Source of the DNA: Dehalococcoidia bacterium
GTDB taxonomy: Bacteria > Chloroflexota > Dehalococcoidia > Lucifugimonadales > UBA2985
Assembly (NCBI GenBank): GCA_965247645.1
Contig: OZ252024.1
Span: forward strand, 974,455 to 1,038,454
Reading direction: 5' to 3'
DNA: 64,000 bases
Under the pieces are notes generated by a model. That model was not told the DNA's origin and searched no databases. It was given only the letters and a program-made list of their open reading frames with translations. Below are positions 6,991 through 58,827 of this stretch, one piece after another. Position 1 is the first letter of the stretch; each line of letters starts with the position of its first letter. The translations under genes were made by a program, and so were the position numbers.

Positions 6991-7158
6991 TTCCTCCTTC
7001 TTTATATAGATAACTCAAACAGAGATCTCAGGGCCATCCCAAGCCTCGCGGCGTACACTTGCCATATTGTATCACGTTCTGATCAGGTTCTCATTATGTT
7101 GCTCCTTTTGGCGCTTTAGCGCTCCCGATATGTACTGCAATGGACGGTGAGATGGAGT

Positions 7159-7190
7159 CCGCTCACCCCCGTATCAAGTCCGGGGCAGAC
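7159..7190 (+). repeat. Dispersed REP-like repeat, family A copy 2
   Basis: ccgctcacccccgtatcaagtccggggcagac. Confidence 0.7.
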
Positions 7191-7457
7191 AATCAGGGGC
7201 GGCAGGCCTTCCGTGTTGGGGCCGGCATTGCGCCAGTCCTCTCTTTCGCGCCGGGGCCGGAGAAGGGCACCGCGAGGGTTGCCCCTACGCTGCGCCGTCA
7301 CTAAGGCACGACGCAGGTGTGTTCACAAACCGAACCGCAATTCCAGCACGCGTCTGGAATACCATAAGGGCTGCCTCGTTGCTGAAAGAGCGCCCCAGTG
7401 TCATAATAGAGTCATGGTGCTGAATTTGTGCGATAAGATCGTGGGTAGGGAAGTCTT

Positions 7458-10840: not shown

Positions 10841-13507
10841 ATGGTGCAGACCGAGACGAGAGTAGCGACTACTCCAAGGGCGTTGGAGGGGGTCCGGGTG
10901 CTGGACTTCACGTGGGTACGGGCGGGGCCGTGGTGCAACCGTTGGCTGGGAGCGCTGGGAGCCGAGGTCATCAAGGTGGAGTGGCCCCAGAGCCCCAACA
11001 CCAGGGGCATAGGGGGGCAGCCCGTGCCTGGCTTTGAGCCTACCCTGAACACATCCGGCCACTTCAGCGACACCAACGCCAACAAGCTGAGTGTCACCCT
11101 CAACACCAGAACGGAGCGTGGCTTCGATCTGATCAAGAGGCTGGTAGCGGTTTCGGACATCGTAATCGAGAACTTCGCCTCCGGGGTGCTGGACCGGTGG
11201 GGTCTCGGCTACGAGGACATGAAGAAGCTGCGCCCGGACATCATCTACCTGTCCATGTCCGGCTTCGGCCACACGGGCAGGGACAAGGACTACCAAACGA
11301 TGGGCCCGATAGCCCAGGCGCTGTCCGGGCTGACCTACACATCCGGGCTCCCTGGTGAGCAGCCTGCGGGCTGGGGCTGGTCCTACATGGACGATACGGG
11401 AGGCTACTTCGGCGCCATATACGCCCTGAGCGCCCTGTACCACCGGAACGCCACGGGCCAGGGGCAGCACGTAGACCAGTCGCAGTGGATAACCGGCGTG
11501 CCACTCAACGGCGCCGCCTTCCTGGACATCCAGGCCAACGACCGCTCCACCGTAAGAGAGGGGTATCCCGCGGGGAACCGGGCGCACTGGCCCGGCACCC
11601 CACTGGCGAACAGCTACCGGGAGCGGACGGTGGCGCCGCACAACGCCTACAGGACCAGCCCGGAGGGTTACAACGACTGGTGTGCGATAGTCTGCTTCAC
11701 GGACGAGGAGTGGAGGAGGTTGGCCGGGGTCATGGGGTCGCCGGACTGGGCTGCGGACGAGAGGTTCGCCACGCTTGGGGGCCGCTTGAAGAACCAGGAG
11801 GATCTGGACGCGGGTATAGAGGCGTGGACAAAGACGCTGGACAAGTACGAGATCATGGAGCGGTGTCAGGCGGCGGGAGCGCCGTGTATGCCTGTGCAGA
11901 GCAACCAGGACCGGTTTGAGAACGACCCGCAGTTGCAGCAACGGGAGATGTTCATAGAGATGGAGCATCCTGTACTGGGGACGTGGCCGTTGCAGAACGC
12001 CCCGTTCAAGATGTCTGAGACACCTGCCTACAACCACCTTACCGGGCCGCTGGTGGGGCGGCATATCAAGGAGGTGTTCGAGGGGCTGCTGGGGATCAGC
12101 CACCAGGAGCTGGTGGACGGCTTTGAGGACGGCACATTCTGGCCCAAGGGGTTTGACATGGCGCCATACCCGTATCTACAGGAGATGATAGAGGATGCGT
12201 CGCCTGTGGAGTGGAAAGGGCTCGCCGCGGGGCCGAATCCGCCGCCGGCGCCAATCAGGACGCCGGACGCCGACACCGCCGGGGCCTTTGGCGGGCTGCG
12301 GGTTCTGGAGCTGTCGGACGAGAAGGGGCAGTGGTGCGGCAAGCTGCTTGGGGACCTGGGAGCGGATGTCATCAAGATAGAGCCGCCCGGCGGAGAGTCG
12401 TCGCGGACGATAGGGCCGTTCTACCAGGACGTGCCGAACCGGGAGAGGAGCCTGTACTTCTGGCACTACAACACATCCAAGCGAGGCGTCACACTGGACC
12501 TGGAGACGGAGGACGGCCGGAGGCTATTCCGGCAGTTGGCGGAGGGAGCGGACGTGATACTGGAGACCTTCCGACCGGGTTACATGGAGTCGCTGGGGCT
12601 GGGGTATGAGGATTTGAAGGAATGGAATCCGGGGTTGATCATGTGCTCGCTGACGCCGTTTGGACAGACGGGGCCGTGGAAGGACTACCTGACCAGCGAC
12701 CTGCTGCACCTGGCAGCCGGTGGGCAGATGGCCTGCTGCGGCTACACGGAAGAGGACTTGCCGGGCGCTCCGCCCATTGCGCCGGGGGGCGGGCAGGCGT
12801 GGCACACGGGCAGCCACTTCGCTTGCATCGCCATCGGGGCTGCCCTGATGCACCGGACGACCACCGGTCGCGGGCAGTACATAGACACGTCCGTGCACGA
12901 GTCGCTTGCCCTTACTACTGAGATGCACGTCAACACCTGGATCTACACCAAGCAGATAGTCCAGCGGCAGACCGGACGCCACGCCGCCGCTACGCCAAAC
13001 CAAAAGTCACAGCACGTGTGCGGAGACGGCAAGTACGTCAACGTGGGCGCTCAGATAGTAACCAGGCTGACCGGAGAGCAGCTGAAGGTGCTGCGTGGGT
13101 GGTATGATGAGCTGGGACTGCCTGTCGACCTCATCGACGAGAAGGAGCGGAACCCCGATGTTATCACCGACAACGAGCTGTTTATGATGCTGCTTGCAAG
13201 CGCGACCCGCGACCAGATCTACCACGGCGGGCAGAAGCGCGGATTCAACCTGGGCGCCGTGCGTTCGCCGGACGAGGTGATGGAAGACCCCCACCTGGAG
13301 GACCGCGGGTTCTGGGCGGAGGTTGAGCAGCCGGAGGTTGGCAGGACGTTCCGCCATCCCGGGCCTGCCGGCATACTCAACGGCTCGCCCTGGAAGATCT
13401 CGCGGCGAGCGCCCCTGATAGGGGAGCACAACGAGGAGGTCTTGTGCGGTGAGTTGGGGCTGTCGAGGGCAGAGTTGGCCGTCCTGGCCGAGGGAGGCGT
13501 GGTCTAG
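10841..13507 (+). CDS. Fused double-domain family III CoA-transferase (CaiB/BaiF family)
   Basis: 888 aa. Two modules opening with VRVLDFTWVRAGPWCNRWLGALGAEVIKVEWP and LRVLELSDEKGQWCGKLLGDLGADVIKIEPPGGE. Confidence 0.85.
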   Translation: MVQTETRVATTPRALEGVRVLDFTWVRAGPWCNRWLGALGAEVIKVEWPQSPNTRGIGGQPVPGFEPTLNTSGHFSDTNANKLSVTLNTRTERGFDLIKRLVAVSDIVIENFASGVLDRWGLGYEDMKKLRPDIIYLSMSGFGHTGRDKDYQTMGPIAQALSGLTYTSGLPGEQPAGWGWSYMDDTGGYFGAIYALSALYHRNATGQGQHVDQSQWITGVPLNGAAFLDIQANDRSTVREGYPAGNRAHWPGTPLANSYRERTVAPHNAYRTSPEGYNDWCAIVCFTDEEWRRLAGVMGSPDWAADERFATLGGRLKNQEDLDAGIEAWTKTLDKYEIMERCQAAGAPCMPVQSNQDRFENDPQLQQREMFIEMEHPVLGTWPLQNAPFKMSETPAYNHLTGPLVGRHIKEVFEGLLGISHQELVDGFEDGTFWPKGFDMAPYPYLQEMIEDASPVEWKGLAAGPNPPPAPIRTPDADTAGAFGGLRVLELSDEKGQWCGKLLGDLGADVIKIEPPGGESSRTIGPFYQDVPNRERSLYFWHYNTSKRGVTLDLETEDGRRLFRQLAEGADVILETFRPGYMESLGLGYEDLKEWNPGLIMCSLTPFGQTGPWKDYLTSDLLHLAAGGQMACCGYTEEDLPGAPPIAPGGGQAWHTGSHFACIAIGAALMHRTTTGRGQYIDTSVHESLALTTEMHVNTWIYTKQIVQRQTGRHAAATPNQKSQHVCGDGKYVNVGAQIVTRLTGEQLKVLRGWYDELGLPVDLIDEKERNPDVITDNELFMMLLASATRDQIYHGGQKRGFNLGAVRSPDEVMEDPHLEDRGFWAEVEQPEVGRTFRHPGPAGILNGSPWKISRRAPLIGEHNEEVLCGELGLSRAELAVLAEGGVV

Positions 13508-13549
13508 CGCCGGCGCGCATACCCTGGGCAACGAATACGCAGCTTGCGC

Positions 13550-13622
13550 GATATACCGGGTCTCGCGGAGACGGGTCACAGCCACACAGGTGGTTTCTGA
13601 CCGAGGCGAGACCCGGTATATC
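13550..13622 (+). terminator. Long hairpin after the CoA-transferase gene
   Basis: Perfect 17-bp inverted repeat gatataccgggtctcgc ... gcgagacccggtatatc with a 39-nt spacer containing further pairing (ggtca/tgacc), followed by cttttc. Confidence 0.4.
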
Positions 13623-13685
13623 CTTTTCAGGGGGCCAACACGACAACGCCACAGGGCAGAGGAGTGAAATTGCAGCCGCCCGTTA

Positions 13686-13718
13686 CCGCTCTCCCACGTA
13701 TCAAGTACGGGGCAGGCT
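13686..13718 (+). repeat. Dispersed REP-like repeat, family A copy 3
   Basis: ccgctctcccacgtatcaagtacggggcaggct. Confidence 0.7.
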
Positions 13719-14108
13719 CAGACAATTGAATGGCGAAGACGCTACAACGGGGCCCTCAGGGAGATCGACAGACCTCCACCGAACCCTGATCTCCCGGGTA
13801 TCGAGGTGTCCCATTTTTTGCTGGTTGCTGAGCTTGTCTCATAAAGCTCCCTGGCAGGATTCCCGCTTATCAGTATAGACCGATTGCGGCGTACGCTCTC
13901 GTGGATTGCTCGGCAATATGTGAAAGATATCCGCAATGCCGACGGACTCCGGAAGATAAAGATCAACGACCCAGAGTGCACCCGATTTCTGAGACAGGCT
14001 CTGCTAAGAGTCGAATTCAACCACAGGCTGGCAGACTACTAGAACGTGCTCAGGGGCTGAATCGACCTGCCGAAACAACATGTCAATTTCATGCTTAAGC
14101 GCTATGAG

Positions 14109-15884
14109 CTATCCGCTGGGCCACGCGGCCAAGACAGATGACAGACTTCCCCAGCAAACAATGGAGCCATCGGTCCTCACGCCACAGGAGTGATCCCACC
14201 CGCAACTGACGGAGACGAACTCGCCCGCAGGGGCCCTGGCTTGTCTCAAGGAATTGCTGCCCCAGCAAGCGACTGAGCCGTCGGTCCTGATACCGCATGT
14301 GTGGTAGCCTCCGGCGCTGACGTCGATGAATTCCCCCTCAGGGGGCGTGGCTTGGGCGAAATCGTCACGGCCCCAGCAGGCGACGGAGCCGTCAACCATC
14401 ATGCCACAGGTGTGATACCAACCGGAACTTACGCTGGTAAATTCGCCCTCAGAGGCCTTGGCTTGGCCACGGTCATCGCTGCCCCAGCAGGCGACGGTCC
14501 CGTCAGCCTTTATGCCACAGGTGTGGTAGCCTCCGGCGCTGACAGAGGAGAACTTACTCTTAGGGGACGTGGTTTTTCCGGACGAATCGCTGCCCCAGCA
14601 GGCAACGGAGTCGTCGGCCATGATCCCGCAAGTGTGGTAGCCTCCGGCACTGACGTCGATGAATTCGCCCTCAGGGGGCGTGGCTTGAGCGAATTCGTCG
14701 CTGCCCCAGCAGACGACGGAATCGTCGGCCGTCACCCCGCAGGTGTGCTTGATCCCGGCACTGACCGTGATGAACTCGTCCTTGGGGGGCGTAGCTTGAT
14801 CATACACATCCCCGCCCCAGCATGCAACGACGCCTCCCACCCTAGTCCCGCAGGAGTGTTCCCACCCGGAATCGATAGAGACGAACGCTTCGCCTGGGGG
14901 CGTAGTTCGACCGTCCCGATTGCCGCCCCAGCAGTCGATGGCGCCGCTGGTTGTCACCCCACAGCCGTAAAAGGCGCCGATGCTGACGGAGATAAACTCT
15001 CCCTCAGGCGGCGGCGATAGGACGAGTCTTCCGCCGCCCCAGCAGGCAATGGTGTTGTCGGCTTTCAAGCCGCATGCGTGGTATTCCCCAGCGCTAACGC
15101 TGGTGAATTCGCCCTCAGGGGGCGTCACTTGGCCGTATTCGTCATAGCCCCAGCAGGCGACGGAAGCGTTGGCCTTTACCCCGCAGGTGTAAAAGTTCCC
15201 AGCGCTAACGGAGACAAACTCACCCTCCGGAGGCGTGGATTGGCCGTATTCGTCATAGCCCCAGCAGACGAGAGAGTCGCTTGGCCTGATACCGCAGGTG
15301 TGGGCCCCTCCGGCGCTGACGGAGACGAACTCGCCCTCCGGTGACCTGGCTTGGCCATGGTTATTGGCCCCCCAGCAGGCGACGGAAGCACTGGCCTTTA
15401 CCCCGCAGGTGTGTCCCCACCCAGCGCTGATGCTTGTAAATTCGCCCGCAGGAGGTGTGGACTCGCCGCGATTGTCGTTACCCGAGCAGTCGACGGACCC
15501 GTCGAGCCTTATTCCGCAGTTGTATCTCCACCCAGCGCTAATGCTTGTGAACTCGCCAGTAGGAGACCTGGCTTGGCCGTACTCGTTATTGCCCCAGCAG
15601 ATGACAGCGCCATTTGTAGTTATCCCGCAGTTGTGATCGAACCCGGCGCTGACAGAGATGAACTCGCCTGCAGTCATGCTATCAACGTCGGATGTGGGGC
15701 CTCCACAGGCAGCCAAGGAGACCGCAATGGCCAGGATGGCAAGCAGCAGTACCAGAGGGCACCGTAAAACGGTCTCCGGACTCCAGGAGCAGCTTGTTCT
15801 AGCGGTCATCGTGGCGCTTCCTGCGATCTGGTCAGGCTTAGGCCTGTAGGTCGCAGTATATCGGTTTACCTGATGATCTGCCAT
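14109..15884 (-). CDS. RCC1-like repeat (beta-propeller) lipoprotein, 14 short repeats
   Basis: 591-aa ORF. TM/lipobox (AVSLAAC|GG), then 14 tandem units of about 37-38 aa of the form GEFxSVSAGxxHTCGxxxDGSxxCWGxxxxGQxxPP. The true start may be the internal Met at 15809. Confidence 0.8.
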   Translation of the reverse strand: MADHQVNRYTATYRPKPDQIAGSATMTARTSCSWSPETVLRCPLVLLLAILAIAVSLAACGGPTSDVDSMTAGEFISVSAGFDHNCGITTNGAVICWGNNEYGQARSPTGEFTSISAGWRYNCGIRLDGSVDCSGNDNRGESTPPAGEFTSISAGWGHTCGVKASASVACWGANNHGQARSPEGEFVSVSAGGAHTCGIRPSDSLVCWGYDEYGQSTPPEGEFVSVSAGNFYTCGVKANASVACWGYDEYGQVTPPEGEFTSVSAGEYHACGLKADNTIACWGGGRLVLSPPPEGEFISVSIGAFYGCGVTTSGAIDCWGGNRDGRTTPPGEAFVSIDSGWEHSCGTRVGGVVACWGGDVYDQATPPKDEFITVSAGIKHTCGVTADDSVVCWGSDEFAQATPPEGEFIDVSAGGYHTCGIMADDSVACWGSDSSGKTTSPKSKFSSVSAGGYHTCGIKADGTVACWGSDDRGQAKASEGEFTSVSSGWYHTCGMMVDGSVACWGRDDFAQATPPEGEFIDVSAGGYHTCGIRTDGSVACWGSNSLRQARAPAGEFVSVSCGWDHSCGVRTDGSIVCWGSLSSVLAAWPSG

Positions 15885-16073
15885 ATAGACCCCGAGAGCA
15901 AGATTTAGTGCATCTATCGATCTGAATCTCCTGCAGAGTTTAGTCGTGTCCAGGCCGCAACCGGTATGTGAGAAGACTGATGGATGTCAAGGCACAGGCT
16001 ACCAACTCAATGCTGTCGTCCTTGCCTCATCAGTGGTACACTCATGATGAGCGTTTGGACAGGAGAGGGCCTC

Positions 16074-16581
16074 ATGGCTACCGGCCTCGTTTGCAGAGGC
16101 ATATGCTTGACCCTGGTCTCGTTGCTGATGGGACTCTGGCTCATGGTTCATCCGGAGCGAAGTTATGCGTGCTCGTGCATTCCTCCAGGCTCGCAATTGG
16201 AGGAACTAGCAGCCTCGCATGCGGTCTTCGAGGGTAGAGTGGCCTCTCTTCATTATTACGAGTCGGGTGACAGTACCCGGAGCGATGGCGAAAGTACCTG
16301 GAGCGGTGGCGCACCTTGACCCCACGGTAAGATTCGAAGTCGAAACCGTCTGGAAAGGGCCCGTTTCCGAAACCATATACGTCCAGACCGCCAGTTCCGG
16401 CGCAGCCTGCGGATTCGGGTTCCGTGAAGGCTCCAGATACATCGTTTACGCCCGTGGCGGTTTCTACGTCAGCCTGTGCAGCAGGACCGGTCTATGGGGA
16501 GCCTCGGATGAATTGGCTGCACTAGGCGAGGGAACAGGCGCCAGAGCCGGGCACAATCTCTCCTGCTTCGTATGCGCCTAA
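16074..16581 (+). pseudogene. Secreted TIMP/NTR-like small protein, frameshifted
   Basis: RBS aggag lies 5-9 nt before the ATG at 16074. A signal peptide ends ...HPERSYA|CSCIPPGS. Frame 1 stops at 16319. A second frame (ORF 16219-16581) continues with VRFEVETVWKGPVSETIYVQTASSGAACGFGFREGSRYIVYARGG. The frameshift lies between 16219 and 16319. Confidence 0.5.
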
Positions 16582-17118
16582 TGAACAGGTTCCCAACTAG
16601 AGACTGGGGCGGATCCCACACCAAATGCACCGGAGGGCAGGGCAAGCGGCGGATGCGTGGAAATCTCAGAACACTGCTGACGTATCTTTAATTGGACTCA
16701 TAAGTCGGCGTTGCTATGGTTCGCCTTGCAAGGAAAGCGAAACTCTGATGGCGCAAAGAGTTGGCAAGTGTAAATGTTAGGAACCGCCCTCCAGACGGGC
16801 CAAAGTTGGCTTGAATCAGCCTATACTTTGGAAGGCGCCAGAATAGGGTACCCTTCCCCTGCACTGGCCTCCTTAGTCCAGAGGCTATTGCCGATGGGTT
16901 CACACAACCCTATGCTGGAAGCAGCGGCCGAAGGGTTGGCGGTGCAGCTACGCAAAGTTGGCGCCACTCGAGCGGGAAAGCCTGACGTTACCAGTCAGTC
17001 CGGCGTGAGCTCCAAGTGGCTAGCGAGGCTCCCGAGCAGCGCAGTACTGTAGAGGCCAACGTAAAGAAGCTCCTGGGCGCGTAGCGTGGAAAGAAAAAAC
17101 ATTGCCGTCAGCCACTTA

Positions 17119-17154
17119 CCCGCTCATATGGTTCGACATGCTCACCGCGGGCGG
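17119..17154 (-). repeat. Dispersed REP-like repeat, family B copy 1
   Basis: cccgctcatatggttcgacatgctcaccgcgggcgg is the reverse complement of the family B core (..gtgagc.tgtcgaaccatatgagcgg). Confidence 0.65.
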
Positions 17155-17355
17155 TAAAGAGGTCGACAGCCCTAGTAAAGCGTCTACTTTCATGGTAATG
17201 ACGTGGGCCGCGGTTGCCCAAAGGTCTCCGTCTGTGGGGGAGGGTTAGAGCCTGCCCAGTACTTAAGCCTGGGGGAGGCGGTGGCGCCCATCCCCCGGCC
17301 CCGCCCGCCCAATGGCGAAGCGCCGGTAGACCAATCCATGTAGAATAGAGGTGTC

Positions 17356-18357
17356 ATGGAGAAGGTCAACGTACTGGTAGGCTGGGCTTTGCCACCGCCT
17401 TTGATGGAGCGCATCGGCGCTCTGGACCCCCGCGTTCACCTGCTCAACGACCCGTACCTGAGCCTTCCGCGGCCGCCGGTATGGCCTCCATTCCTCTTCC
17501 CGGAGCAGCTCCTCCCACTGCTCCCCCGCGCCCAGGTAGTTTTCACCTCTCGGCTGCCCCCGGACGCGCAGCGCCTGGCTTCCAGTCTCCGATGGATCCA
17601 ACTCCTGAGCGCAGGCGCGGACGTGGCTATAGGAGATGGGCCGGAGCGGAGCGACATCCTGGTTACGACAGCCAAAGGCGTCCAGGCCATCCCCCTGTCC
17701 GAGTGGGTTATTGGCGCCATGATCGCGCTATCCAGGAGATTCCCACAGGCCGTCCGCGCCCAGGGCCGGAGGGAGTATTGGAAGTTCATAGGTGAGGAGC
17801 TGGCCGGGCGCACCGCCGGTATCCTGGGTATGGGCAACATCGGCCACAGAGTGGCGCGGCTATGCAAAGCGTTGGATATGCGCGTCCTGGGGATGCGCCG
17901 CTCCGTGACTCAGCCCCAGGAAGGCCAGGGCCCCACAGACCTGCTTCTTCCGCCGCGAGACCTGCCACTGATGCTGCGAGAGAGCGACTTCCTTATCATA
18001 TGCCTGCCAGGGACGCGGGAGACAGCGGGGCTCCTGGGACTCGCTGAGCTCCGGCAGATGAAGCAGGGGGCCTGCCTCATCAACGTGGGCAGAGGCGGCA
18101 TCGTGGACGAGCAGGCCCTGGTAGAAGTCGTAAGGGCGGGCCGGCTTGCAGGAGCGGCCCTTGATGTCTTTGCGCAAGAGCCGTTGCCGCAGGACAGCCC
18201 TCTGTGGGATGAGCCGAACATACTGCTGACGGCCCACGTCGCCGCCAACTCCCACCTATACGAGGAACGCGGCACGGAGCTATTCCTGGAGAACCTGAGA
18301 AGGTACCTGGACGGCCGGGACCTGCTCAACATCTACGACCCGGAGATAGGCTACTGA
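17356..18357 (+). CDS. D-isomer-specific 2-hydroxyacid dehydrogenase family protein
   Basis: 333 aa. NAD-binding GILGMGNIGHRVARL motif. Catalytic-domain motifs (NVGRGGIVDE, LTAHVA) are typical of the family. Confidence 0.85.
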   Translation: MEKVNVLVGWALPPPLMERIGALDPRVHLLNDPYLSLPRPPVWPPFLFPEQLLPLLPRAQVVFTSRLPPDAQRLASSLRWIQLLSAGADVAIGDGPERSDILVTTAKGVQAIPLSEWVIGAMIALSRRFPQAVRAQGRREYWKFIGEELAGRTAGILGMGNIGHRVARLCKALDMRVLGMRRSVTQPQEGQGPTDLLLPPRDLPLMLRESDFLIICLPGTRETAGLLGLAELRQMKQGACLINVGRGGIVDEQALVEVVRAGRLAGAALDVFAQEPLPQDSPLWDEPNILLTAHVAANSHLYEERGTELFLENLRRYLDGRDLLNIYDPEIGY

Positions 18358-28178: not shown

Positions 28179-29183
28179 CTAACTCTCTACGTCAGACAGT
28201 CTGAATATGAAGCCCTCCGCATTGCCTTCATCGTCAATATAGCCTTCATATCGAGAGTCAACCTCGTTGTCCAGCTCAAATGCTGCCAGCAACTCCAAGT
28301 CATTGGCGCTCTCCGGTAAGTCGTATTCCAGAGATATGCCAACGTCTGCCTGATTATCGGGGCTTTCTCCATATGGGATCTTGCCGTCACGGATGGTTCC
28401 ACTGAATTCACAACTGGAGGCCCCGTAGAACATCCCATCCCCGTCGCGGATTACCAGGTTGTCGCTGCAGTCAGGCAGCGGCATTTCCGAGTCCGGCGTG
28501 AGGTTACTGAGCGCCAATTCAAAGGTGAGCTTCCTGCCGTCCCGTTCCATATACCAGCCGCTGACAGTGCATTCATAGGAGCCGCACATAGCGTAGTAAT
28601 CGTCAACGTACGCCAGGTCTACCTTTACTTCCACGTCTCGAAAGCAATCCGACCCACCCAGTCGATAGCGAACGAGGGGGGCAAACTTCTCCCAAGCCTC
28701 GTTTATCAGTTCGAAGTCCTCATCCAACCTCTGCACGATTTCCTCATTATCAGAAAACTCCAGGGCGGTGCTGTCCCTGGGCTGCGAATCTATAGCGTCC
28801 TTTAGTTTCTTTATGAAGTCGGTGACAGCGCTGTCGTAGGCGTCCAATTCATTGGGAAGGTCTTGTGATTCCCATGCGTCAAGGTCTTCCCCCAAGGCCT
28901 CCGACCATTCGGCGATTGTTGAGTCTTCTCCAATCTGAGAAACGGAGCTCTCAAGCGGCAAGATGCAATTCTCTTCATACGCGGCCAAGTTCTCCCAATC
29001 AATGGTTGACGATCCGTTGCTTTCTGAGCTTCCCGGGAGGGGCACGCCGCAGGCTGCAACGGCTGCAATGGCGATAATGTTCGCCACCAACCACGTCGTA
29101 GTGGTTACCTCGCTGCGCTCTTTGTGCGGTTTCCGCGAAGGACGTCGGGCATGCGTGGGGGGTCTATTAGGAAATAAAAACAT
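28179..29183 (-). CDS. Acidic secreted lipoprotein, hypothetical
   Basis: The ORF runs 28179-29249. I prefer the ATG at 29183. It has a lipobox AAVAAC|GVP and a very Asp/Glu-rich mature part. No family recognised. Confidence 0.55.
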   Translation of the reverse strand: MFLFPNRPPTHARRPSRKPHKERSEVTTTTWLVANIIAIAAVAACGVPLPGSSESNGSSTIDWENLAAYEENCILPLESSVSQIGEDSTIAEWSEALGEDLDAWESQDLPNELDAYDSAVTDFIKKLKDAIDSQPRDSTALEFSDNEEIVQRLDEDFELINEAWEKFAPLVRYRLGGSDCFRDVEVKVDLAYVDDYYAMCGSYECTVSGWYMERDGRKLTFELALSNLTPDSEMPLPDCSDNLVIRDGDGMFYGASSCEFSGTIRDGKIPYGESPDNQADVGISLEYDLPESANDLELLAAFELDNEVDSRYEGYIDDEGNAEGFIFRLSDVES

Positions 29184-29289
29184 AGGCTGTATATCTAATT
29201 CATAGTGTCCAAGACTTGGGGGGAGGGGGAAGTGAAACCGGTTGCGCACTGGCAGTCAAGTATGTATAAGAGGGTAAAATAGCAGGTAT

Positions 29290-43680: not shown

Positions 43681-44529
43681 ATGAACGACTACAACCCGTA
43701 CAAAGACTTCACGAACCGGCTAAAGTTGTTTATTGGCAAGAACCCTGATCTAATCACAACCACACTCAGCAACATCTTCACCATGCGCCTCATTGGGAAC
43801 AAGACCCACGGTGACCTAGCTGAGATAGCCATCGCGGAATTCATCAACCAATACATGTACGACTTCAGTTCGATTCATGTCGGGAAAGACCTCTACCGTG
43901 CGAAGTCGAAAGAGGAAGACATCACGATTATCAATGACCTAACTAAGGCGGAATTCCCAGTCAGCCTCAAAGCCTACGGGGTTGGTCCATTGCAACTCTC
44001 TACAGATAAGGACTTCCGAATGTTCCTAAGGCTCGAGCAAGAAGGTAGTCAGATTGAGGGGCGCGCCGCCGTCGAGGAAATCATGCGGTCTCCGTCCTTC
44101 TCGGAGTTCAGAAATATCAATGTGCTTCCGCTGATATACAATGAACAAGAGCAAAAATGTAACATTCTTGTATTCGACTATGACCGCGCAATGGGTGCAA
44201 CCGTACGTATAACCAGGATCGAAGCAGGCGGCGGCAGGAAGCACCCGATTTATCGCTTTTTTGACAGTTCCGAATCTTATATTTGCGAAGTACGTTACGG
44301 GGACGCAACGGCCAATGCTCTCCAACGCGGTTTGTGGACACATACCAAACTAGGACTGCCATACTTCGAGAGTGTGACGAGAGGATGGATAGATTATTCA
44401 CATAATCAACTTCTTGTCGACTTGTTTTCGCACGCTTTGGTATCCTCTGGGACCGGGCACAAGTCTGCTCTAGTGGCGGTCAAAGAGGATATTGCTCTAC
44501 TGAAGCAGAGAGCAGGGATATCAACATGA
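43681..44529 (+). CDS. Putative type II restriction endonuclease (family not recognised)
   Basis: 282 aa in the low-GC island, with strong RBS aaggagga. Its stop overlaps the start of the DNA methyltransferase gene (ATGA at 44526-44529). The assignment rests on context only. Confidence 0.45.
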   Translation: MNDYNPYKDFTNRLKLFIGKNPDLITTTLSNIFTMRLIGNKTHGDLAEIAIAEFINQYMYDFSSIHVGKDLYRAKSKEEDITIINDLTKAEFPVSLKAYGVGPLQLSTDKDFRMFLRLEQEGSQIEGRAAVEEIMRSPSFSEFRNINVLPLIYNEQEQKCNILVFDYDRAMGATVRITRIEAGGGRKHPIYRFFDSSESYICEVRYGDATANALQRGLWTHTKLGLPYFESVTRGWIDYSHNQLLVDLFSHALVSSGTGHKSALVAVKEDIALLKQRAGIST

Positions 44530-45659
44530 TGCAGACACTCCCTCTCTTTAGCCACCTTGTACTTGACTCCCCACCTACTGAGGGCATCAAGTATGCAGGG
44601 TCGAAACTGAAATTGATTCCCTATATCCTGCAATTAGCTCGGAAGGTTGGCGCCGATACCGTTCTGGACGGGTTTTCCGGGACAACTAGGGTATCGCAGG
44701 CACTCGCTAAGCGTGGGCACACCGTTATATGTAACGACACCGCAGTGTGGTCTGAGGTGTTTGGCACATGTTATCTACTGAATAGCGCAACAAGGGTTGC
44801 ATACCAACCGCTGATTGACCACCTCAATTCTGTCCAGGAAACTGACGGATGGTTCACAGAGCATTACGGAGGGCATCCCAATGGCGGCTGTGCTATACAG
44901 GCTAATGGTCTCAAGAAACCATGGCAGGTCCATAATACCCGTAAGCTGGATGGGATACGGTTAGAAATCGACAAGCTAAACCTCGGCCATATTGACAGGG
45001 CAGTGGCATTGACAAGTTTGATTCTGGCGCTTAACAAAGTAGACAATACCATTGGGCACTTTGCGTCGTACCTCAAAACATGGTCATTGAGATCATACGA
45101 CCACCTATGGCTTAAAGTGCCCGATGTTTTTGAGTCGTCGCAACGTCACCAAGTACATCGATCTGACGTGCTTGACATCGTTCCTAGTGTATCCCCAGAC
45201 CTTGCTTATTTTGACCCACCTTACGGCTCTAATAACGACAAGATGCCACCATCGAGAGTGCGTTATTCAGCGTATTACCACGTATGGACTAGCGTCTGTC
45301 TTTTTGATGAACCGGATCTGTTTGGCAGGGCAAATCGTCGCCAGGATACATCGGACATTGTGTCACCCTCGGCATTGGAAGACTTTCGCCGCTCATCCGG
45401 TGGCAAATTTGTGGCGGTTGAGGCAATCAATCGGCTGTTAGGTGCGACTAACGCTCATTGGATTCTCCTTTCCTACAGCTCAGGAGGTCGGGCCACAGGT
45501 GAAGAACTGGACGAGGTACTAAGGAGTAACGGGAAACTGACGGATGTGATAGAGATAGACTATAAGAGAAATGTTATGGGAAGCATGACTTGGACAGAAG
45601 AGTGGATTAGAGAATCAACGGAGCCTCACCGTGAATTCTTGTTCTTGTTGGAGAAATAG
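44526..45659 (+). CDS. Site-specific DNA N6-adenine methyltransferase (alpha-type motif order, D12/Dam-like)
   Basis: 377 aa. Contains the N-terminal KYAGSKLKLIPYI, AdoMet motif I (VLDGFSGTTRV) and catalytic motif IV DPPY (45213-45224), with a ~180-aa putative target-recognition region between them. Confidence 0.8.
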   Translation: MMQTLPLFSHLVLDSPPTEGIKYAGSKLKLIPYILQLARKVGADTVLDGFSGTTRVSQALAKRGHTVICNDTAVWSEVFGTCYLLNSATRVAYQPLIDHLNSVQETDGWFTEHYGGHPNGGCAIQANGLKKPWQVHNTRKLDGIRLEIDKLNLGHIDRAVALTSLILALNKVDNTIGHFASYLKTWSLRSYDHLWLKVPDVFESSQRHQVHRSDVLDIVPSVSPDLAYFDPPYGSNNDKMPPSRVRYSAYYHVWTSVCLFDEPDLFGRANRRQDTSDIVSPSALEDFRRSSGGKFVAVEAINRLLGATNAHWILLSYSSGGRATGEELDEVLRSNGKLTDVIEIDYKRNVMGSMTWTEEWIRESTEPHREFLFLLEK

Positions 45660-49200: not shown

Positions 49201-51675
49201 GTGTGGAGGCCCACATTGCCAGAGCTGCTCCCGGAATCTCTCCGCAACGTCTGTGACGACTCGTGTCTGCAATTCCAGACCACTGCAGACCTGCCGCCAC
49301 TGCAAGCCATAATAGGACAGCGGCGCGCGGTGCGGGCCCTGGAGTTTGGGCTTGGTATAGAGGAAAAGGGATACAACGTATACGTGGCCGGCCAATCCGG
49401 GACGGGGAAAACCTCCGCCATAACCACCTTTCTCCAGGAGCGAGCCGGCGACAGAAAGCCTCCCCCCGACTGGTGCTACGTCCAGAACTTCAGGGATCCC
49501 AGCCAGCCCAGGGCGCTGCAACTGCCCGCCGGCAGGGGCCGAGAGCTCCAGCGAGACATGAGGAACCTGGTGGACGAAGCCACACGCGACATCACTCGTT
49601 CCCTGGAAGGCGAGGAGTACTCCAATCGCAGAGAAGACCTTATCCAGGAGTTCCGTCGTGAGAGAGAGAGCCTCTTCGGCACCCTCAACGACCGCGCCAG
49701 GGAGGAGGGGTTCCTCCTTCAGACAACCTCCACCGGCCTGGTCCTGGTCCCGCACAGAGACGGCAGGCCACTATCCGAAGATGAGACGGCCTCCCTTACC
49801 GCCACTCAGCGAGAGAGACTGACCCAGACGCGGGAGTCCCTGGAGAGCGACCTGAAACAGGTCTTCACACAGGTGCGCAGGACCGAGCGGCGCTCCTATG
49901 AGCGCATCCAGCAAGTGGACCAGGAGATAGTCCGCTTTGCCCTTGATTTTCTCGTTCAGGAGCTGACGGAAAAGTACGACTCCCTCCCGCAGGTCAAAAT
50001 CTACCTGGATGAGGTGGAGTCTGACATGGCGGAGAACGCCGACCTGTTCCGGGCCAAGCCCCAAGAGGAACGGAACCCAGCCAACGCGCGGTCTGCTACA
50101 GACTCCTCTCACACCATGCGGCGTTACGAGGTCAACGTCATCGTGGACAACTCCCAGACTCAAGGCGCGCCGGTGGTGTCGGAGTTCAACCCCACTCCCG
50201 GCAACATCATGGGGCGCGTGGAGAGGGAGGCCCAGTTCGGCGCTCTGGAGACGGACCTGACCATGATACGGCCGGGCTCGCTGCACCGGGCCAACGGTGG
50301 CTTCTACATCCTCAGAATAGAGGAGATGCTGCGCAACCCCTTCTCCTGGGAAGGACTCAAGCGGTGCCTCAAGGAAGGCAAGATAGCCATTGAGGAGACG
50401 GCGGAGCGCATGGGCTTTATGGCCACCAAAGGGTTGTCGCCGGAGCCTATACCCCTGGATATAAAGACCATACTCATTGGCAACCCCATGCTCTATCACA
50501 GGCTGTACTCCCACGACCCGGACTTTGTGGAGCTGTTCAAGGTGAAAGTGGAGTTCGATAGCAGCATGGACCGCACGGACGAGAACGTCAGGGACTACGC
50601 CGCCTTCATCTGCGCCCTTGGAGAGAAAGAAGATCTGCTGCCGGTGGACCGCAAGGGCGTGAGTAAGCTGGTGGAGCACAGCTCGCGCCTGGCAGACAAC
50701 CAGTCGAAGCTGTCCACACGCTTCTCGGAGATAAGCGACATCGTCCGCGAGTCCAACTACTGGGCCAAGAAGGACGGCGCGCCCTGCATCTACGCGCAGC
50801 ACATGACCCGCGCCATCGACGAGAAGATATACCGTTCGGACCTGATACGGGAGAAGGTCCTGGAATTGATCGCCAGCGGCACCATAGACATAGACACGGA
50901 GGGCGAGGTCATAGGGCAGGTGAACGGCCTGGCTGTCCTGGACCTGGGCGACTTCTCCTTTGGACGGCCCGGCCGCATCACGGTCAGCGTCTCACCAGGC
51001 AGGCAGGGACTCATAGACATTGAGAGGGAGGCCAACCTGGGAGGAAGGCTTCACACAAAAGGGGTGATGATCCTGGGCGGCTACCTGGCGGACAGACACG
51101 CGCAGGGTGTTCCCATGTCGCTTGCAGCCCGCCTGACAATGGAGCAGAGCTACGCGGAGATTGAGGGCGATAGCGCATCCAGCGCAGAGCTGTACGCCCT
51201 TCTATCTCGCTTGGCGGACCTGCCCATCAAGCAGGGAATCGCGGTTACCGGCTCCGTAAACCAGAAGGGGCAGGTACAGGCCATAGGAGGCGTCAACGAG
51301 AAGGTGGAGGGGTTCTTCTACGTCTGCCAGGCCAAGGGTCTGACGGGAGGCCAGGGCGTGATGATACCCGCGGCCAACGCGCAGAACCTGATGCTCCGGG
51401 AAGAGGTAGTGCAGGCGGTGAGCGAAGGCCGGTTCCACGTCTACAGCGTGAGCGCTATCGACGAGGGAATCGAGATCCTCACCGGGGTGAAGGCGGGCGC
51501 AACTGGAGCCGACGGCTCCTTTGAGGAGGGATCGGTGAACCGGCGGGTCAGTCAGAAGCTGCGAGACATGGCCCGGGGTCTCCGTGACTTCGGCCGCCGG
51601 GAGCGCAGCAGGCCCGCGAACGGCGCGGAGCCAACCGCAGCCGAGGAATCGCCCGGCAGCCCCACCGAAGGCTGA
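49201..51675 (+). CDS. Lon-related ATP-dependent protease (AAA+ module plus S16 Lon proteolytic domain)
   Basis: 824 aa. Walker A GQSGTGKTS. The C-terminal Lon protease domain reads EIEGDSASSAELYALLSRLADLPIKQGIAVTGSVNQKGQVQAIGGVNEKVEGFF. Confidence 0.8.
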   Translation: MWRPTLPELLPESLRNVCDDSCLQFQTTADLPPLQAIIGQRRAVRALEFGLGIEEKGYNVYVAGQSGTGKTSAITTFLQERAGDRKPPPDWCYVQNFRDPSQPRALQLPAGRGRELQRDMRNLVDEATRDITRSLEGEEYSNRREDLIQEFRRERESLFGTLNDRAREEGFLLQTTSTGLVLVPHRDGRPLSEDETASLTATQRERLTQTRESLESDLKQVFTQVRRTERRSYERIQQVDQEIVRFALDFLVQELTEKYDSLPQVKIYLDEVESDMAENADLFRAKPQEERNPANARSATDSSHTMRRYEVNVIVDNSQTQGAPVVSEFNPTPGNIMGRVEREAQFGALETDLTMIRPGSLHRANGGFYILRIEEMLRNPFSWEGLKRCLKEGKIAIEETAERMGFMATKGLSPEPIPLDIKTILIGNPMLYHRLYSHDPDFVELFKVKVEFDSSMDRTDENVRDYAAFICALGEKEDLLPVDRKGVSKLVEHSSRLADNQSKLSTRFSEISDIVRESNYWAKKDGAPCIYAQHMTRAIDEKIYRSDLIREKVLELIASGTIDIDTEGEVIGQVNGLAVLDLGDFSFGRPGRITVSVSPGRQGLIDIEREANLGGRLHTKGVMILGGYLADRHAQGVPMSLAARLTMEQSYAEIEGDSASSAELYALLSRLADLPIKQGIAVTGSVNQKGQVQAIGGVNEKVEGFFYVCQAKGLTGGQGVMIPAANAQNLMLREEVVQAVSEGRFHVYSVSAIDEGIEILTGVKAGATGADGSFEEGSVNRRVSQKLRDMARGLRDFGRRERSRPANGAEPTAAEESPGSPTEG

Positions 51676-51714: not shown

Positions 51715-52371
51715 TTGACGGACCGGCCGTCTGAGTTGAAGGCGCTGGCTGAGAAGGCGCGCGCCTTCTTCGGCGACAAGCACGCCGCGCGGGAGCGCGC
51801 GTTGCAGCTCTCCCGCGTGACCATCCAGCTATCCTCGACCGCCATCCGCGCTGTCCATCGCAACGAGTACGACGAGGCCCGCGCGCTCATCCGCTCGGCC
51901 GGGGAGCGCGTAGCCGAGATGAAGGACATCCGGGAGAACCACCCGGACATCTACTACACCGGCTTCGTGCAGGACGCCCAGAAGGAGTACGTTGAGGCCA
52001 ACGCAACCCTGGCGTTCATCACCGGCGCATCGCTGCCCTACCCGGAGGAGCTTGGAATATCCTACGGCGCTTACCTAAACGGCCTGGGCGAGACCATTGG
52101 AGAGATGCGGAGATACCTGCTGGACTCCCTCCGCCGCGGCGATGTGTCGCGCTGCGAGGAGCTGCTTGATCTGATGGATCACGTCTACACGGAGTTGTTC
52201 ACCATGGACTTCCCAGAGGCTATCACCGGCGGACTCAGGCGCACGACGGACGCCATGCGGGGCATCATGGAGCGCACTCGCGGAGACCTCACCACGGCCC
52301 TGAGACAGCAGAGCCTGGAGGAACGGCTCAGCCGGCTATGGGACAGGTTAACCACGCAAAACCTTGACTAG
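51715..52371 (+). CDS. Translin-family protein
   Basis: 218 aa. AYLNGLGETIGEMRRYLLDSLRRGDVSRCEELLDLMDHVYTELFTMDFPEAITGGLRRTTDAMRGIMERTRGDL aligns by eye with the human translin segment DYLSGVLILASELSRLSVNSVTAGDYSRPLHISTFINELDSGFRLLNLKNDSLRKRYDGLKYDVKKVEEVVYDL. Confidence 0.65.
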   Translation: MTDRPSELKALAEKARAFFGDKHAARERALQLSRVTIQLSSTAIRAVHRNEYDEARALIRSAGERVAEMKDIRENHPDIYYTGFVQDAQKEYVEANATLAFITGASLPYPEELGISYGAYLNGLGETIGEMRRYLLDSLRRGDVSRCEELLDLMDHVYTELFTMDFPEAITGGLRRTTDAMRGIMERTRGDLTTALRQQSLEERLSRLWDRLTTQNLD

Positions 52372-54615: not shown

Positions 54616-54707
54616 CCAACGCTTGCCCCTGCGGCAGCTCGGGGTAGTATGCTATAATCGTGGGTACAACAAACGCGGGCCGCGTACCTCGCGCCAGGAG
54701 TTGAAAC

Positions 54708-55565
54708 ATGACCCAAAGCGACTATCCTCGCCCGGATCTTTTGGTGGAGTCGGAATGGCTTGAGGCTCACCTGAACGACCCCGACATCCGCATCGTAGAC
54801 TGCGACCAGTACGACCTGTACACCCGCGCCCACATCGCGAACGCCGTGGGCATCCCGGAGCACAACTTCATCAAGAACCCGAACTTCCCCAGCGATCCCA
54901 CTGGCTATCCCCTGGTGGCGTCGGCGGAGGACTTTGCGCGTTTGATGGGCAGAATGGGCATTGGGAACGACACGACTGTTGTGGCCTACGACGCCGGTGG
55001 AGGAACACGCGCCGCCCGGCTGTGGTGGGTTCTCAACTACTACGGACACACCAAGGCCATGATGCTCAACGGCGGCTGGAAGAAGTGGCACGACGAGGGT
55101 CGGCCCACGTCGACGGACGCGCTGAGGCCACCGGAGGCCTCTTTCACCTCTACGGAAGTCCCCGACTTGGTCTGCCTGATGGACTACGGAGTCTCGTGCG
55201 TCGGGGACCCGGACACGGTGTTCCTGGACGTGCGCTCGGACGACGAGTGGACCGGAGCCGGCGCCCGCGGCAACAAGCGAGCCGGACACGTGCCCGGAGC
55301 CGTGCACCTGGAGTGGCTCAACTTCGTGACCAGCGACAAGCATCAGACCGTCAAGCCGGCCCATGAGCTCAGGGCCATGCTGGAGGAGCGCGGCGTAACG
55401 CCGGACAAGCAGGTGATCACCTATTGACAGGGAGGAATCCGTGCGGCGCACGGCGCGTTCGTTCTCACCCTTATGGGATACAACCGGGTCCGTAACTATG
55501 ACGGCTCCATGGGAGAGTGGGCCAATCGAGACCACACCCCTCTGATGGTGGAGAGCGGGGGCTGA
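54708..55565 (+). CDS. Tandem-rhodanese sulfurtransferase with in-frame TGA (candidate selenocysteine) at the catalytic position
   Basis: The track ORF stops at TGA 55425-55427. The same frame continues for 45 codons (QGGIRAAHGAFVLTLMGYNRVRNYDGSMGEWANRDHTPLMVESGG) to TGA 55563-55565, completing the catalytic rhodanese domain. The TGA replaces the Cys of the CxxGxR active-site loop. Confidence 0.65.
55432..55466 (+). promoter_or_regulatory. Candidate bacterial SECIS hairpin
   Basis: Upper stem ccgtgc/gcacgg (55439-44 / 55448-53) with loop ggc. A possible lower stem is gagga/ttctc (55432-36 / 55462-66). The apical loop begins 17 nt after the UGA. No energy calculation was done. Confidence 0.4.
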
Positions 55566-56726: not shown

Positions 56727-56806
56727 AGGAGGACGACGCAATGGCGATATTTCTTCGTGAGGAGGACGTGGTACGCCTTCTGCCCATGAATGAGGTCATA
56801 AGATAG
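56727..56806 (+). pseudogene. Duplicated 5' fragment (RBS plus first ~20 codons) of the ornithine cyclodeaminase-family gene
   Basis: aggaggacgacgcaatggcgatatttcttcgtgagga... is near-identical over about 75 nt to 60278-60351. It reads [21 protein letters not shown] and then a stop. Confidence 0.7.
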
Positions 56807-58827
56807 TGAGCAGGGCATTTATAGCGACCCTGGCACTTGCAATGCTGGTTTTTGCCCTGGCGTGCCAGGAGCAGGAACCTACTGCCGCGCCCAGCGCAAT
56901 GGCTACACCGGTTTCAACATCAACTCCTACGCCCGCGCCGACAGCCACCGCGACGGCAGTCCCAACGGCTTCGCCGACGCCCATTCCAACGCCTACTCCT
57001 ACCCCAGAGCCTACGGCTACCGCGACGGCGGTCCCAACACCAACACCAACGCCTACGCCCACTCCCACACCGGCGCCCACCAACACGCCAACCCCAACCC
57101 CAACGCCGGCGCCCACATCTACCCCCACTCCCATGCCCACGCCGGTTCCGGTCGAGCTTGACCTTTCACCCATATCGCCGACGCAGATGGACGTCAGCTG
57201 GTCGTTGGGTGTCGCAGATGCGACGGCGCTCTCTCTTTACCGGGACGGCGACCTCATAGCCACACCATCGATAGAAACCCAGTCCATAGAAGACGCCGAT
57301 CTCAGCCCCAACACCCGATACGTCTACAGGCTCGTCGCGAGCCGCCAGAACGACGCGGAGGTCGCAGATGAGAAGGCGGTGGCTACCCTTGCGCATCCTC
57401 CCAAGATTTCCACTCAGATGGCCACCCATTGGACGGGATTCCAGCAGCCCATAATCGACGAACTCAACCCGGACTACACGGAGTACCGCGTTACTCTAAC
57501 CAGGCATGGTAGGATCATTCCGGGGGAAGACGTGGCAGACTCCGGCTGGAGTACGAGCAAGTGTAGAAAGCTGGACGGCTTGCAACCGGGGCAGTCCTAC
57601 ACTGTCTCGGTCGCCGCAAGGAACCTGGACGGAATCGAGACGGGACCCGCGAACCTGATTAGAGGTTCCCCATTTGATTACTACGGTCATGCTTCTACCA
57701 GACAACACGCAGCCAACGAAGACCCGTGGGCCAAAAACCGGGTGCGCGACGTCGTTCGCATATACGGGCTTACGGAAGCCGCCGAGGAGTGGATGAATAG
57801 CGACATTCAAATCAGGTGGGAACGAGGCGAGCCGGGATATGCCGGGGCTCAGTGGGGTAGGCCCACTATAGGGCACAGCTATCCGGGAACGCTTATGCAC
57901 GAGGTAATGCATGTGTTCTGGCACTTTTGGGACGGATTCCCGGAACCGTGCGACCAGATGAACTTATACACATTCAGGCGAGATGTGGCACAATTCGTTA
58001 TCGACTTCCGGGATTACTACCACTCCGACTTTAGCGAGGATTTTGACTGGGAATCTTGGCGTCTGTACTACGACATGATGTTAGGCTTCCTTGAAGACGC
58101 ATCCCCTGACAACGAGGATTTTTGGGAGATCCTGGAGCGACGTGAATACATAAAGCTATGGTGGGGATTCTTCCACAGCATGGAGACCAACATACCGCTC
58201 CAGGCTCCACGGAGCTTGTCCCTGTTCCCACCAACGGTCCAGAAGTATTTCCAGGGGTTCATTGAGCCGGGGGAAGACATTACATGGGAGGAACACATCT
58301 TCTGGTACTCGCGGCTCGCGGAAGAGGACCAGGTACTGGCGCACCCCTTCGCCTCCCACGCCATTACACACCATACGATTGAGTCAATCGCAGACCCCGG
58401 ACACCCGCGAACCCGGCTCCCTGAACCGTTGAGGACGCATCTGAGGGAAGCCGACAGGCAGATGCTCGTCGACTTCATAAATACCCTGGAGGACATAAGA
58501 CCCTGGGAGTGGCGGGAACAGTCACCCTGGTTCTGGCACTACTACATCAGATGGCATATCTCCCGTGCAGACATATATGGCGCTGAGATTAGCCCTGAGA
58601 TGGGAATAGAGATGGACGAGGCCAACCTCCAAGCCGTTCTAACGGCGCTGGAGGCCTTATACAACTACCACTGCCTGCCCAAGGAGATTCCGAATTGCGG
58701 ATACGACCCCCACTCCCTTAGCCCTACGAGAAGGGATGCCGCCCACGAGACCATTACGAACCTGGACGCACTTACAGATAAACAGCGGAGAGTTCTTCTT
58801 GAGATGATAATGTTGGAGCGAGGCTAG
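56806..58827 (+). CDS. Secreted lipoprotein with Pro/Thr linker, FN3-like domains and an HExxH (zincin-like) motif
   Basis: 673 aa. GTG start, lipobox LVFALAC|QEQE and a ~90-aa PT-rich linker. FN3-like segments (PTQMDVSWS...[10 protein letters not shown]; YTEYRVTL...[10 protein letters not shown]). HEVMH at 57898-57912. Confidence 0.65.
56878..57150 (+). repeat. Low-complexity Pro/Thr-coding tract with an internal duplication
   Basis: Encodes [91 protein letters not shown]. Confidence 0.8.

Follow-up and report, generated by a model that had tools for sequence, protein, structure and literature searches.

The stretch of DNA analysed here, hereafter the window, comprises 64,000 nt from a Dehalococcoidia bacterium (assembly GCA_965247645.1, contig OZ252024.1, positions 974,455-1,038,454 of the forward strand). 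At 54708-55565 it contains a gene for a tandem rhodanese with an in-frame TGA, which we consider a candidate selenocysteine (Sec) codon. The first section of the open reading frame (ORF) runs from the ATG at 54708 to 55427 (+), spans 239 codons and ends ...DKQVITY, followed by TGA at 55425-55427. Annotation pipelines take this part (54708..55424), which has a G+C content at third codon positions (GC3) of 0.84, for the entire gene. Past the TGA, another 45 codons (QGGIRAAHGAFVLTLMGYNRVRNYDGSMGEWANRDHTPLMVESGG) follow in frame before a second TGA at 55563-55565, and reading through 54708-55565 yields a product of 285 aa. The gene is otherwise free of stops and frameshifts. In the read-through product Pfam identifies two Rhodanese stretches (E = 1.7e-38), the second of which covers residues 166-273 and hence spans the TGA, at residue 240. 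The features of the locus are these:

54696..54700 (+): Shine-Dalgarno-like AGGAG, 7 nt 5' of the ATG, as read from the sequence
54708..55424 (+): codons 1-239, for the non-catalytic rhodanese domain at the N-terminus and the bulk of the catalytic one at the C-terminus (ORF list; two Pfam Rhodanese matches)
55422..55424 (+): Tyr239 codon TAT, just 5' of the UGA, an unusual conserved synonymous choice
55425..55427 (+): in-frame UGA, residue 240, the putative Sec codon at the catalytic-Cys position (homologue and structure alignments)
55428..55562 (+): codons 241-285, for the remainder of the active-site loop (QGGIR) and the last part of the catalytic domain (open frame; Pfam and PDB alignments)
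55430..55465 (+): entire predicted stem-loop resembling a selenocysteine insertion sequence (SECIS), including a less conserved lower stem (minimum free energy, MFE, structure from RNAfold; register uncertain in the window)
55439..55453 (+): SECIS upper hairpin, with CCGUGC at 55439-55444, loop GGC at 55445-55447 and GCACGG at 55448-55453
55563..55565 (+): true stop TGA, with no SECIS after it (orthologues end with TGA, TAA or TAG)

The position of the UGA within the protein is informative. The read-through product aligns over residues 6-280 with solved tandem rhodaneses, with E values from 2e-46 to 2e-27. The best structure is 1UAR (E = 2e-46, aligned residues 3-280), followed by 3HWI, 3AAX, 1E0C, 1RHD and 1URH, and residue 240 is aligned with the catalytic Cys (yCriaers in 1UAR, yCrigers in 3HWI). 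We also examined the 120 best database homologues of the window protein. Most of these (103/120) are 228-243 aa long, usually exactly 239 aa, with a C-terminus of the form ...(T/I/A/V/S/P)Y. The remaining 17, of 269-287 aa, have Y-C-Q-G/A-G-I/V-R across the UGA column, with Cys in 17/17. An earlier note on this DNA, made from the letters alone, had described an ORF ending in DKQVITY-TGA, 45 more open codons and a 285-aa product, all of which the sequence confirms. It had also read the codons past the TGA as the missing end of the catalytic domain, in agreement with the Pfam stretch and the structure alignments. Its placement of the UGA at the nucleophilic Cys (U-Q-G-G-I-R), which it proposed to check against homologues, is borne out by the Cys that every full-length homologue carries in this column and by the aligned catalytic Cys of 1UAR and 3HWI.

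The UGA is widely conserved. Scanning one representative genome for each GTDB species gave 251 relatives, and the best 80 of these (98-56% identity) were analysed. They derive from Dehalococcoidia, Binatia, Gemmatimonadota, Thermodesulfobacteriota, Entotheonella and sponge-symbiont metagenome-assembled genomes (MAGs), in a clade that includes MAGs from sponges and sediment. TGA occupies the Sec column at 80/80 loci, each time followed by a strongly conserved extension that ends 41-45 codons past the Sec codon and reads QGGIRAAHG...NYDGSMGEWANR in all 80. Metagenomes were scanned with a Cys-form profile as the seed; this yielded another 80 loci, with TGA at the Sec column in 44, TGC in 34 and TGT in 2. 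The exact 239-aa window product (P0149) is public on at least two contigs. Its 90% cluster holds 106 member sequences; among the 15 members listed, all are short calls of 228-248 aa, and 13 are exactly 239 aa long. A rough neighbor-joining tree (157 sequences, 122 with U and 35 with C) requires at least six switches between Sec and Cys.

These counts speak to the idea that the TGA is a nonsense mutation, the mark of a pseudogene or a base-call error on a Cys codon in this assembly. A single change converts TGC or TGT to TGA, and one assembly of the exact window was inspected. Such a hit on the Cys codon had been called a notable coincidence at the outset, and it would have to have recurred in 80/80 independent species-level genomes and 44 metagenome contigs. 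Because independent assemblies carry the TGA, sequencing error is excluded. The gene is otherwise free of lesions, the identical protein occurs on more than one contig and within a populous cluster, and the sequence downstream of the TGA is under strong purifying selection. We assign virtually no probability to a mutated or miscalled Cys codon. Reassignment of UGA to Gly or Trp was rejected as well: 17 other called genes in the window end in TGA, as does the rhodanese gene at its own true end, so UGA has not been globally reassigned.

The extension also bears on a different explanation, namely that the 239-residue product is a real, functional rhodanese-fold protein without a catalytic loop, that the 45 codons are untranslated, and that the hairpin serves, for example, as an attenuator or terminator. 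Every public annotation gives the short product of ~239 aa, and catalytically inactive rhodanese domains do exist, an example being the N-terminal domain of the COG2897-type rhodanese itself. However, 124 loci, some with an overall identity as low as 56%, conserve the 41-45 codons past the UGA in frame and as amino acids. The extension has a coding GC3 signature and has neither a start codon of its own nor a Shine-Dalgarno-like ribosome-binding site before it, and it aligns with the end of the rhodanese domain in both Pfam and the solved structures. Moreover, Cys-form homologues are contiguous full-length proteins, and the hairpin lacks a U-tract. We regard a functional truncated protein as very improbable.

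Immediately past the UGA lies a potential SECIS. In the bacterial SECIS (bSECIS) model, the apical loop is 3-9 nt long with a G in its first two positions, the upper stem has 4-16 bp, the spacing from the UGA is 16-37 nt and the MFE is ≤ -7.5 kcal/mol (PMC13188914). The window hairpin fits this model, with the loop GGC (starting GG), a stem of 6 bp, a spacing of 17 nt and an energy of -8.0 kcal/mol. A lower-stem extension, gagga (55432-55436) with ttctc (62-66), is possible. The elements that the earlier note had pointed out, namely the hairpin ccgtgc-ggc-gcacgg, its gagga/ttctc extension and a G-containing loop 17 nt past the UGA, are thus all present. Under window codon usage, the exact five-codon string of the hairpin has a probability of ~0.003.

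The codons of the hairpin differ between UGA and Cys forms of the gene. The bSECIS model is satisfied by 103/110 distinct Sec-form sequences versus 5/34 Cys forms (Mann-Whitney p = 9e-12). We compared codon choice over the same peptide, I-R-A-A-H, in 41 Sec forms and 34 Cys forms, with P values from Fisher tests. Cys forms mix synonymous codons here, and Sec forms are fixed or nearly so:

Arg, CGT: Sec forms 37/41, Cys forms 3/34, p = 2e-13
First Ala, GCG: Sec forms 41/41, Cys forms 15/34, p = 6e-9
Second Ala, GCG: Sec forms 41/41, Cys forms 21/34, p = 7e-6
His, CAC: Sec forms 41/41, Cys forms 25/34, p = 4e-4

Within the Sec clade, normalised synonymous entropy at codons 244-249 is 0.15, 0.11, 0, 0, 0 and 0.29, compared to values that are typically 0.4-0.9 elsewhere in the gene. 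This trough is the deepest in the gene and coincides with the hairpin. Some of the codons fixed there are disfavoured elsewhere in the clade, as other Arg sites favour CGC over CGT and other Gly sites favour GGC over GGA. Pairing is likewise well conserved. Across 82 distinct sequences, 96.7% of upper-helix cells are paired, and the given register shows 89% pairing overall, versus at most 58% for any slid register. Pairing in the lower helix model reaches 82% over the same sequences, with some one- and two-sided changes. These data indicate, at the level of comparative sequence analysis, that the hairpin RNA is under selection only in the UGA forms.

Exceptions to the general pattern are instructive. 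One marine Sec subclade, made up of metagenome contigs (L137, L138, L142, L147, L149, L152, L154-L157, L159 and L160), has the peptide U-QGGIRAANS and lacks the GGC-loop hairpin. Its members have an alternative hairpin, GCGAACA-GUN-UGUUCGU, of 7-8 bp with a spacing of 25, which lies ~8 nt further 3' and fits the bSECIS model. SECIS structure and position are kept where the sequence differs, and one SECIS has been replaced by another within the protein family. Among Cys forms, one metagenome locus (L081, Ga0101943_1000111, TGC) keeps the full hairpin core, with 0/18 mismatches; all other Cys forms have 3-6. This locus looks like a recent Sec-to-Cys conversion, with decay of the element following.

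Codon choice just upstream of the UGA also differs between the two forms. The Tyr codon 5' of the UGA is TAT in 102/115 distinct Sec forms versus 10/34 Cys forms (p = 5e-11), and TAC is found in 24/34 Cys forms. TAC is favoured at all other conserved Tyr positions of the clade, as it is genome-wide. A mutual-information scan returned no pairing partner for the UGA or the upstream TAT, only clade-level amino-acid co-variation. The TAT preference may be a UGA-context effect.

On these comparative grounds, the gene encodes a complete tandem rhodanese, the UGA at its nucleophile position is recoded, and the recoding is directed by a conserved hairpin of SECIS type. It is very probable that 54708-55565 is one gene for a 285-residue tandem-domain rhodanese of the COG2897 type, resembling thiosulfate sulfurtransferase (TST) and 3-mercaptopyruvate sulfurtransferase (MST), with Sec as its catalytic nucleophile. 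The earlier note's reading of the gene as a candidate selenocysteine sulfurtransferase is thereby supported.

Several results weigh against this reading. Folding of 55425-55480 with RNAfold gave an MFE of -19.7 kcal/mol, which in this 61% G+C sequence amounts to a z-score of only -1.04, and ~18% of synonymous recodings (same peptide, window codon usage) yield a compliant hairpin of ≤ -8.0 kcal/mol. As the window by itself does not make the hairpin significant, we relied on the comparative evidence. Rfam gave no match at gathering score over the full window and none at E ≤ 10 on 55380-55520; its bacterial SECIS models are lineage-specific, and hence the missing match is no argument against SECIS function. 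Of the checks that the earlier note had suggested, the fit to the bSECIS model favours the element, and the single-sequence z-score from RNAfold is not significant. Classical covariation support is thin because most upper-stem pairs never vary (4/7 are invariant). Covariation is confined to one pair (15-29), where three sequences (L079, L080 and L111), perhaps representing two events, show a double change from C:G to A:U. In addition, ARAGORN found no tRNA in the 64-kb window and no tRNA-Sec in 60 related loci. Tblastn searches for selA, selB and selD in the window and 160 loci (±10 kb flanks, ~2.5 Mb), with E. coli queries, gave only matches to EF-Tu-like GTPases. Finally, in the literature we found no biochemical study of any member, no protein-level report of selenium incorporation and no enzymology.

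The main residual doubt about Sec is that the Sec machinery was not located in the 64 kb of this genome that were searched. Pfam annotation of 20 window genes included no sel genes; these are ordinary housekeeping genes, encoding dihydroxy-acid dehydratase, TatC, a Lon-like protease, MoeA, RibBA and others. Relatives are more informative. In the 20-kb flanks of four Sec-rhodanese genomes, we found AhpC/TSA-family (thioredoxin-fold) genes with an in-frame TGA at the first Cys of W-C-x-x-C:

L021, ~1950-2666 (+): AhpC/TSA-family gene, TGA at 2354
L026 (+): AhpC/TSA-family gene, TGA at 2217
L030 (+): AhpC/TSA-family gene, TGA at 1342
L038 (-): AhpC/TSA-family gene, TGA at 5671

The motifs around the TGA include FHATW-U-GSC and FYRGEW-U-PYC. 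In these genes the downstream coding sequence is conserved and a hairpin lies nearby, and they are probably UxxC selenoproteins. UxxC proteins of the AhpC/TSA family are classical bacterial selenoproteins. BSepDB records Dehalococcoidia MAGs that contain 46-49 selenoprotein genes, one of these MAGs being from the same UUID-named assembly series as the analysed loci (PMC13326102). From the selenoprotein genes in the four related genomes and these published selenoprotein-rich Dehalococcoidia, we infer that the present genome decodes Sec.

Another way to account for the same data is that the UGA is recoded, only not (or not always) as Sec. Cys could be inserted in a SECIS/SelB-dependent manner by a tRNA(Sec)-like tRNA, or near-cognate read-through at UGA-C could insert Trp or Cys, giving a full-length Cys or Trp enzyme. 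The conserved UGA, extension and hairpin prove recoding, not the identity of the inserted residue, and the failure to locate Sec machinery in the window and fetched flanks fits this explanation. The UGA is followed here by C, a leaky context; UGA-C is the weakest termination context in bacteria. Mukai et al. (2016) reportedly described tRNA(Sec)-like tRNAs that recode Sec to Cys in nature. On the other hand, the hairpin matches the geometry of a SelB-type SECIS, related genomes carry the UxxC genes described above, the class includes selenoprotein-rich genomes, and an enzyme with Trp as its catalytic nucleophile would be inactive. Furthermore, one change from TGA to TGC would supply Cys and has occurred repeatedly (the switches on the tree, and L081), yet most of the clade keeps UGA. 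Insertion of a residue other than Sec is therefore unlikely in our view.

With Sec as the nucleophile, expression and catalysis might proceed as follows. During translation the hairpin would bind SelB-GTP-Sec-tRNA(Sec), and SelB would deliver Sec to the UGA in the A site, in competition with RF2. Failed decoding would leave a 239-residue product without the active-site loop, presumably inactive. By analogy to the double-displacement mechanism of rhodaneses, the selenolate would take sulfane sulfur from a donor to form an enzyme Se-S(H) intermediate, from which the sulfur would pass to an acceptor. Having a low pKa and being a strong nucleophile and good leaving group, Sec could make both half-reactions faster or guard against irreversible over-oxidation. 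No natural selenoenzyme is known to us to transfer sulfur by way of Se-S(H); most resemble thiol oxidoreductases.

Family models point to no particular sulfur donor or acceptor. The active-site loop reads CRKGVT in TST and CG[ST]GVT in MST, and UQGGIR fits neither classical motif. None of the NCBIfam equivalogs reaches its cutoff, the best being the 3-MST model PRK11493 (123.6 bits versus 250), and ExtH, the rhodanese of selenite/tellurite operons, scores 62.7 bits against a cutoff of 200. Genomic context offers no conserved operon partner across loci: an arylsulfotransferase-like gene comes next in 23, an EamA transporter gene in 14 and a GDSL esterase gene in the window. The window rhodanese gene is flanked by genes for an H+-pyrophosphatase immediately upstream and for this GDSL esterase immediately downstream.

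Rhodanese selenoproteins have been predicted before, as the earlier note correctly stated for ocean metagenomes. In 2005, Zhang, Fomenko and Gladyshev predicted 15 new selenoprotein families from Sargasso Sea data, among them a rhodanese-related sulfurtransferase (COG2897), for which they had 3 sequences and drew a predicted SECIS in their Figure 3 (PMC1088965). The 2008 analysis of the Global Ocean Sampling (GOS) data counted 8 sequences for cd01449 and 1 for COG2897 (PMC2398784), and a 2026 review includes UxxG rhodanese among selenoproteins (PMC13188914). To judge by its architecture, its motif and the position of Sec, the window gene is a member of this COG2897/cd01449 UxxG family. Like its selenoproteins, the window product is a tandem rhodanese with Sec predicted at the catalytic Cys of the C-terminal repeat, a UxxG motif (here U-Q-G-G), a predicted SECIS just downstream with G in a small apical loop, and abundant Cys homologues. 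Unlike the published examples, a handful of marine reads, the window gene resides in a Dehalococcoidia genome; the likeness is one of description, and neither of the published representatives, AACY01016424 and MCY3690685.1 (the latter the review's), is among the listed members of the window protein's 90% cluster. The marine RAANS subclade may be the form originally described. The kind of enzyme has been predicted since 2005, and the window gene is no new category.

Comparison with better-known systems places the element and protein more precisely. As in E. coli fdhF, the hairpin lies in coding sequence directly past the UGA, with G starting a small apical loop and a spacing within 16-37 nt. 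The fdhF SECIS is a longer stem-loop with a bulged U, in contrast to the minimal GGC triloop on a G+C-rich upper stem of 6-7 bp in the window, which is predicted to bind SelB. The protein shares its two-domain fold, and a loop that starts at the nucleophile, with Cys-type tandem rhodaneses from Thermus thermophilus (1UAR), mycobacteria (3HWI/3AAX/3HZU SseA), Azotobacter (RhdA, 1E0C), cattle (1RHD) and E. coli (SseA, 1URH). In all of these structures the nucleophile is Cys, and the loop reads, for example, CRIAERS (1UAR) versus UQGGIRA in the window. Single-domain rhodanese selenoproteins (COG0607 forms 1-3, rhodanese_LYCAU NF041203 and TsoB) also have a Sec-containing rhodanese domain. They consist of one domain or a DsbD fusion with UxxS, CxU or UxxxxU, so the window gene differs from them in architecture and in Sec position and motif. 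The NF041203 model scores 37.7 bits against the window product (cutoff 115), on the N-terminal domain only.

These observations have consequences for annotation. Public records still give the family as a 239-aa product, which affects 103/120 of the best database clusters, and no NCBIfam model covers it; a correction would apply to hundreds of public records. A widespread probable selenoenzyme is therefore systematically shortened in Chloroflexota and Binatia genomes, and selenoproteome counts for these phyla are too low. Sec would serve here as a group-transfer nucleophile rather than as a residue of a redox couple. The family also provides clean comparative material on SECIS evolution, with constraint in coding sequence (invariant), replacement (sister subclade) and decay after Sec loss (the fossil hairpin in a Cys form).

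A broader proposal, which we offer tentatively and with appreciable doubt, is that the Sec form may be the standard version of the enzyme in Dehalococcoidia, Binatia and Entotheonella, that Se would act as a sulfur-transfer nucleophile with an Se-S(H) intermediate, and that the SECIS would combine a minimal, near-invariant GGC triloop with a selected U 5' of the UGA, beyond the consensus model. The notion of Sec as the standard stems from the best 80 genome matches, all of which are UGA forms. A related possibility is that the protein might traffic selenium rather than sulfur, as a perselenide or selenotrisulfide carrier.

We found no other selenoprotein genes in the window. A candidate at 35092(-) was rejected for want of any supporting signal, as was read-through of the TGA at 51673-51675, which merely separates two adjacent genes in the same frame. 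Directly after the Lon-like protease gene, and in the same frame, is a 218-aa ORF at 51715-52371 (+) whose match to the Translin family is weak (E = 7e-5, short of the Pfam cutoff). The ORF may encode a bacterial translin-like protein and is no read-through candidate. Further downstream, 56806-58827 (+) encodes a 673-aa predicted secreted protein with a long, low-complexity Pro/Thr-rich linker (TPTPTPTP...) and a fibronectin type III domain; the antisense ORF at 56796-57173 is a spurious G/V-rich frame created by this Pro/Thr repeat. A simple GC3-based gene caller gave no convincing ORF at 6990-8336, 13507-15298 or 15636-17356. Two ORFs, 28179-29249 (-) and 43681-45441 (+), have GC3 values of 0.57-0.62, compared to ~0.75-0.85 in their neighbours, and the 356-aa one has no Pfam family. 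They may be laterally acquired DNA.

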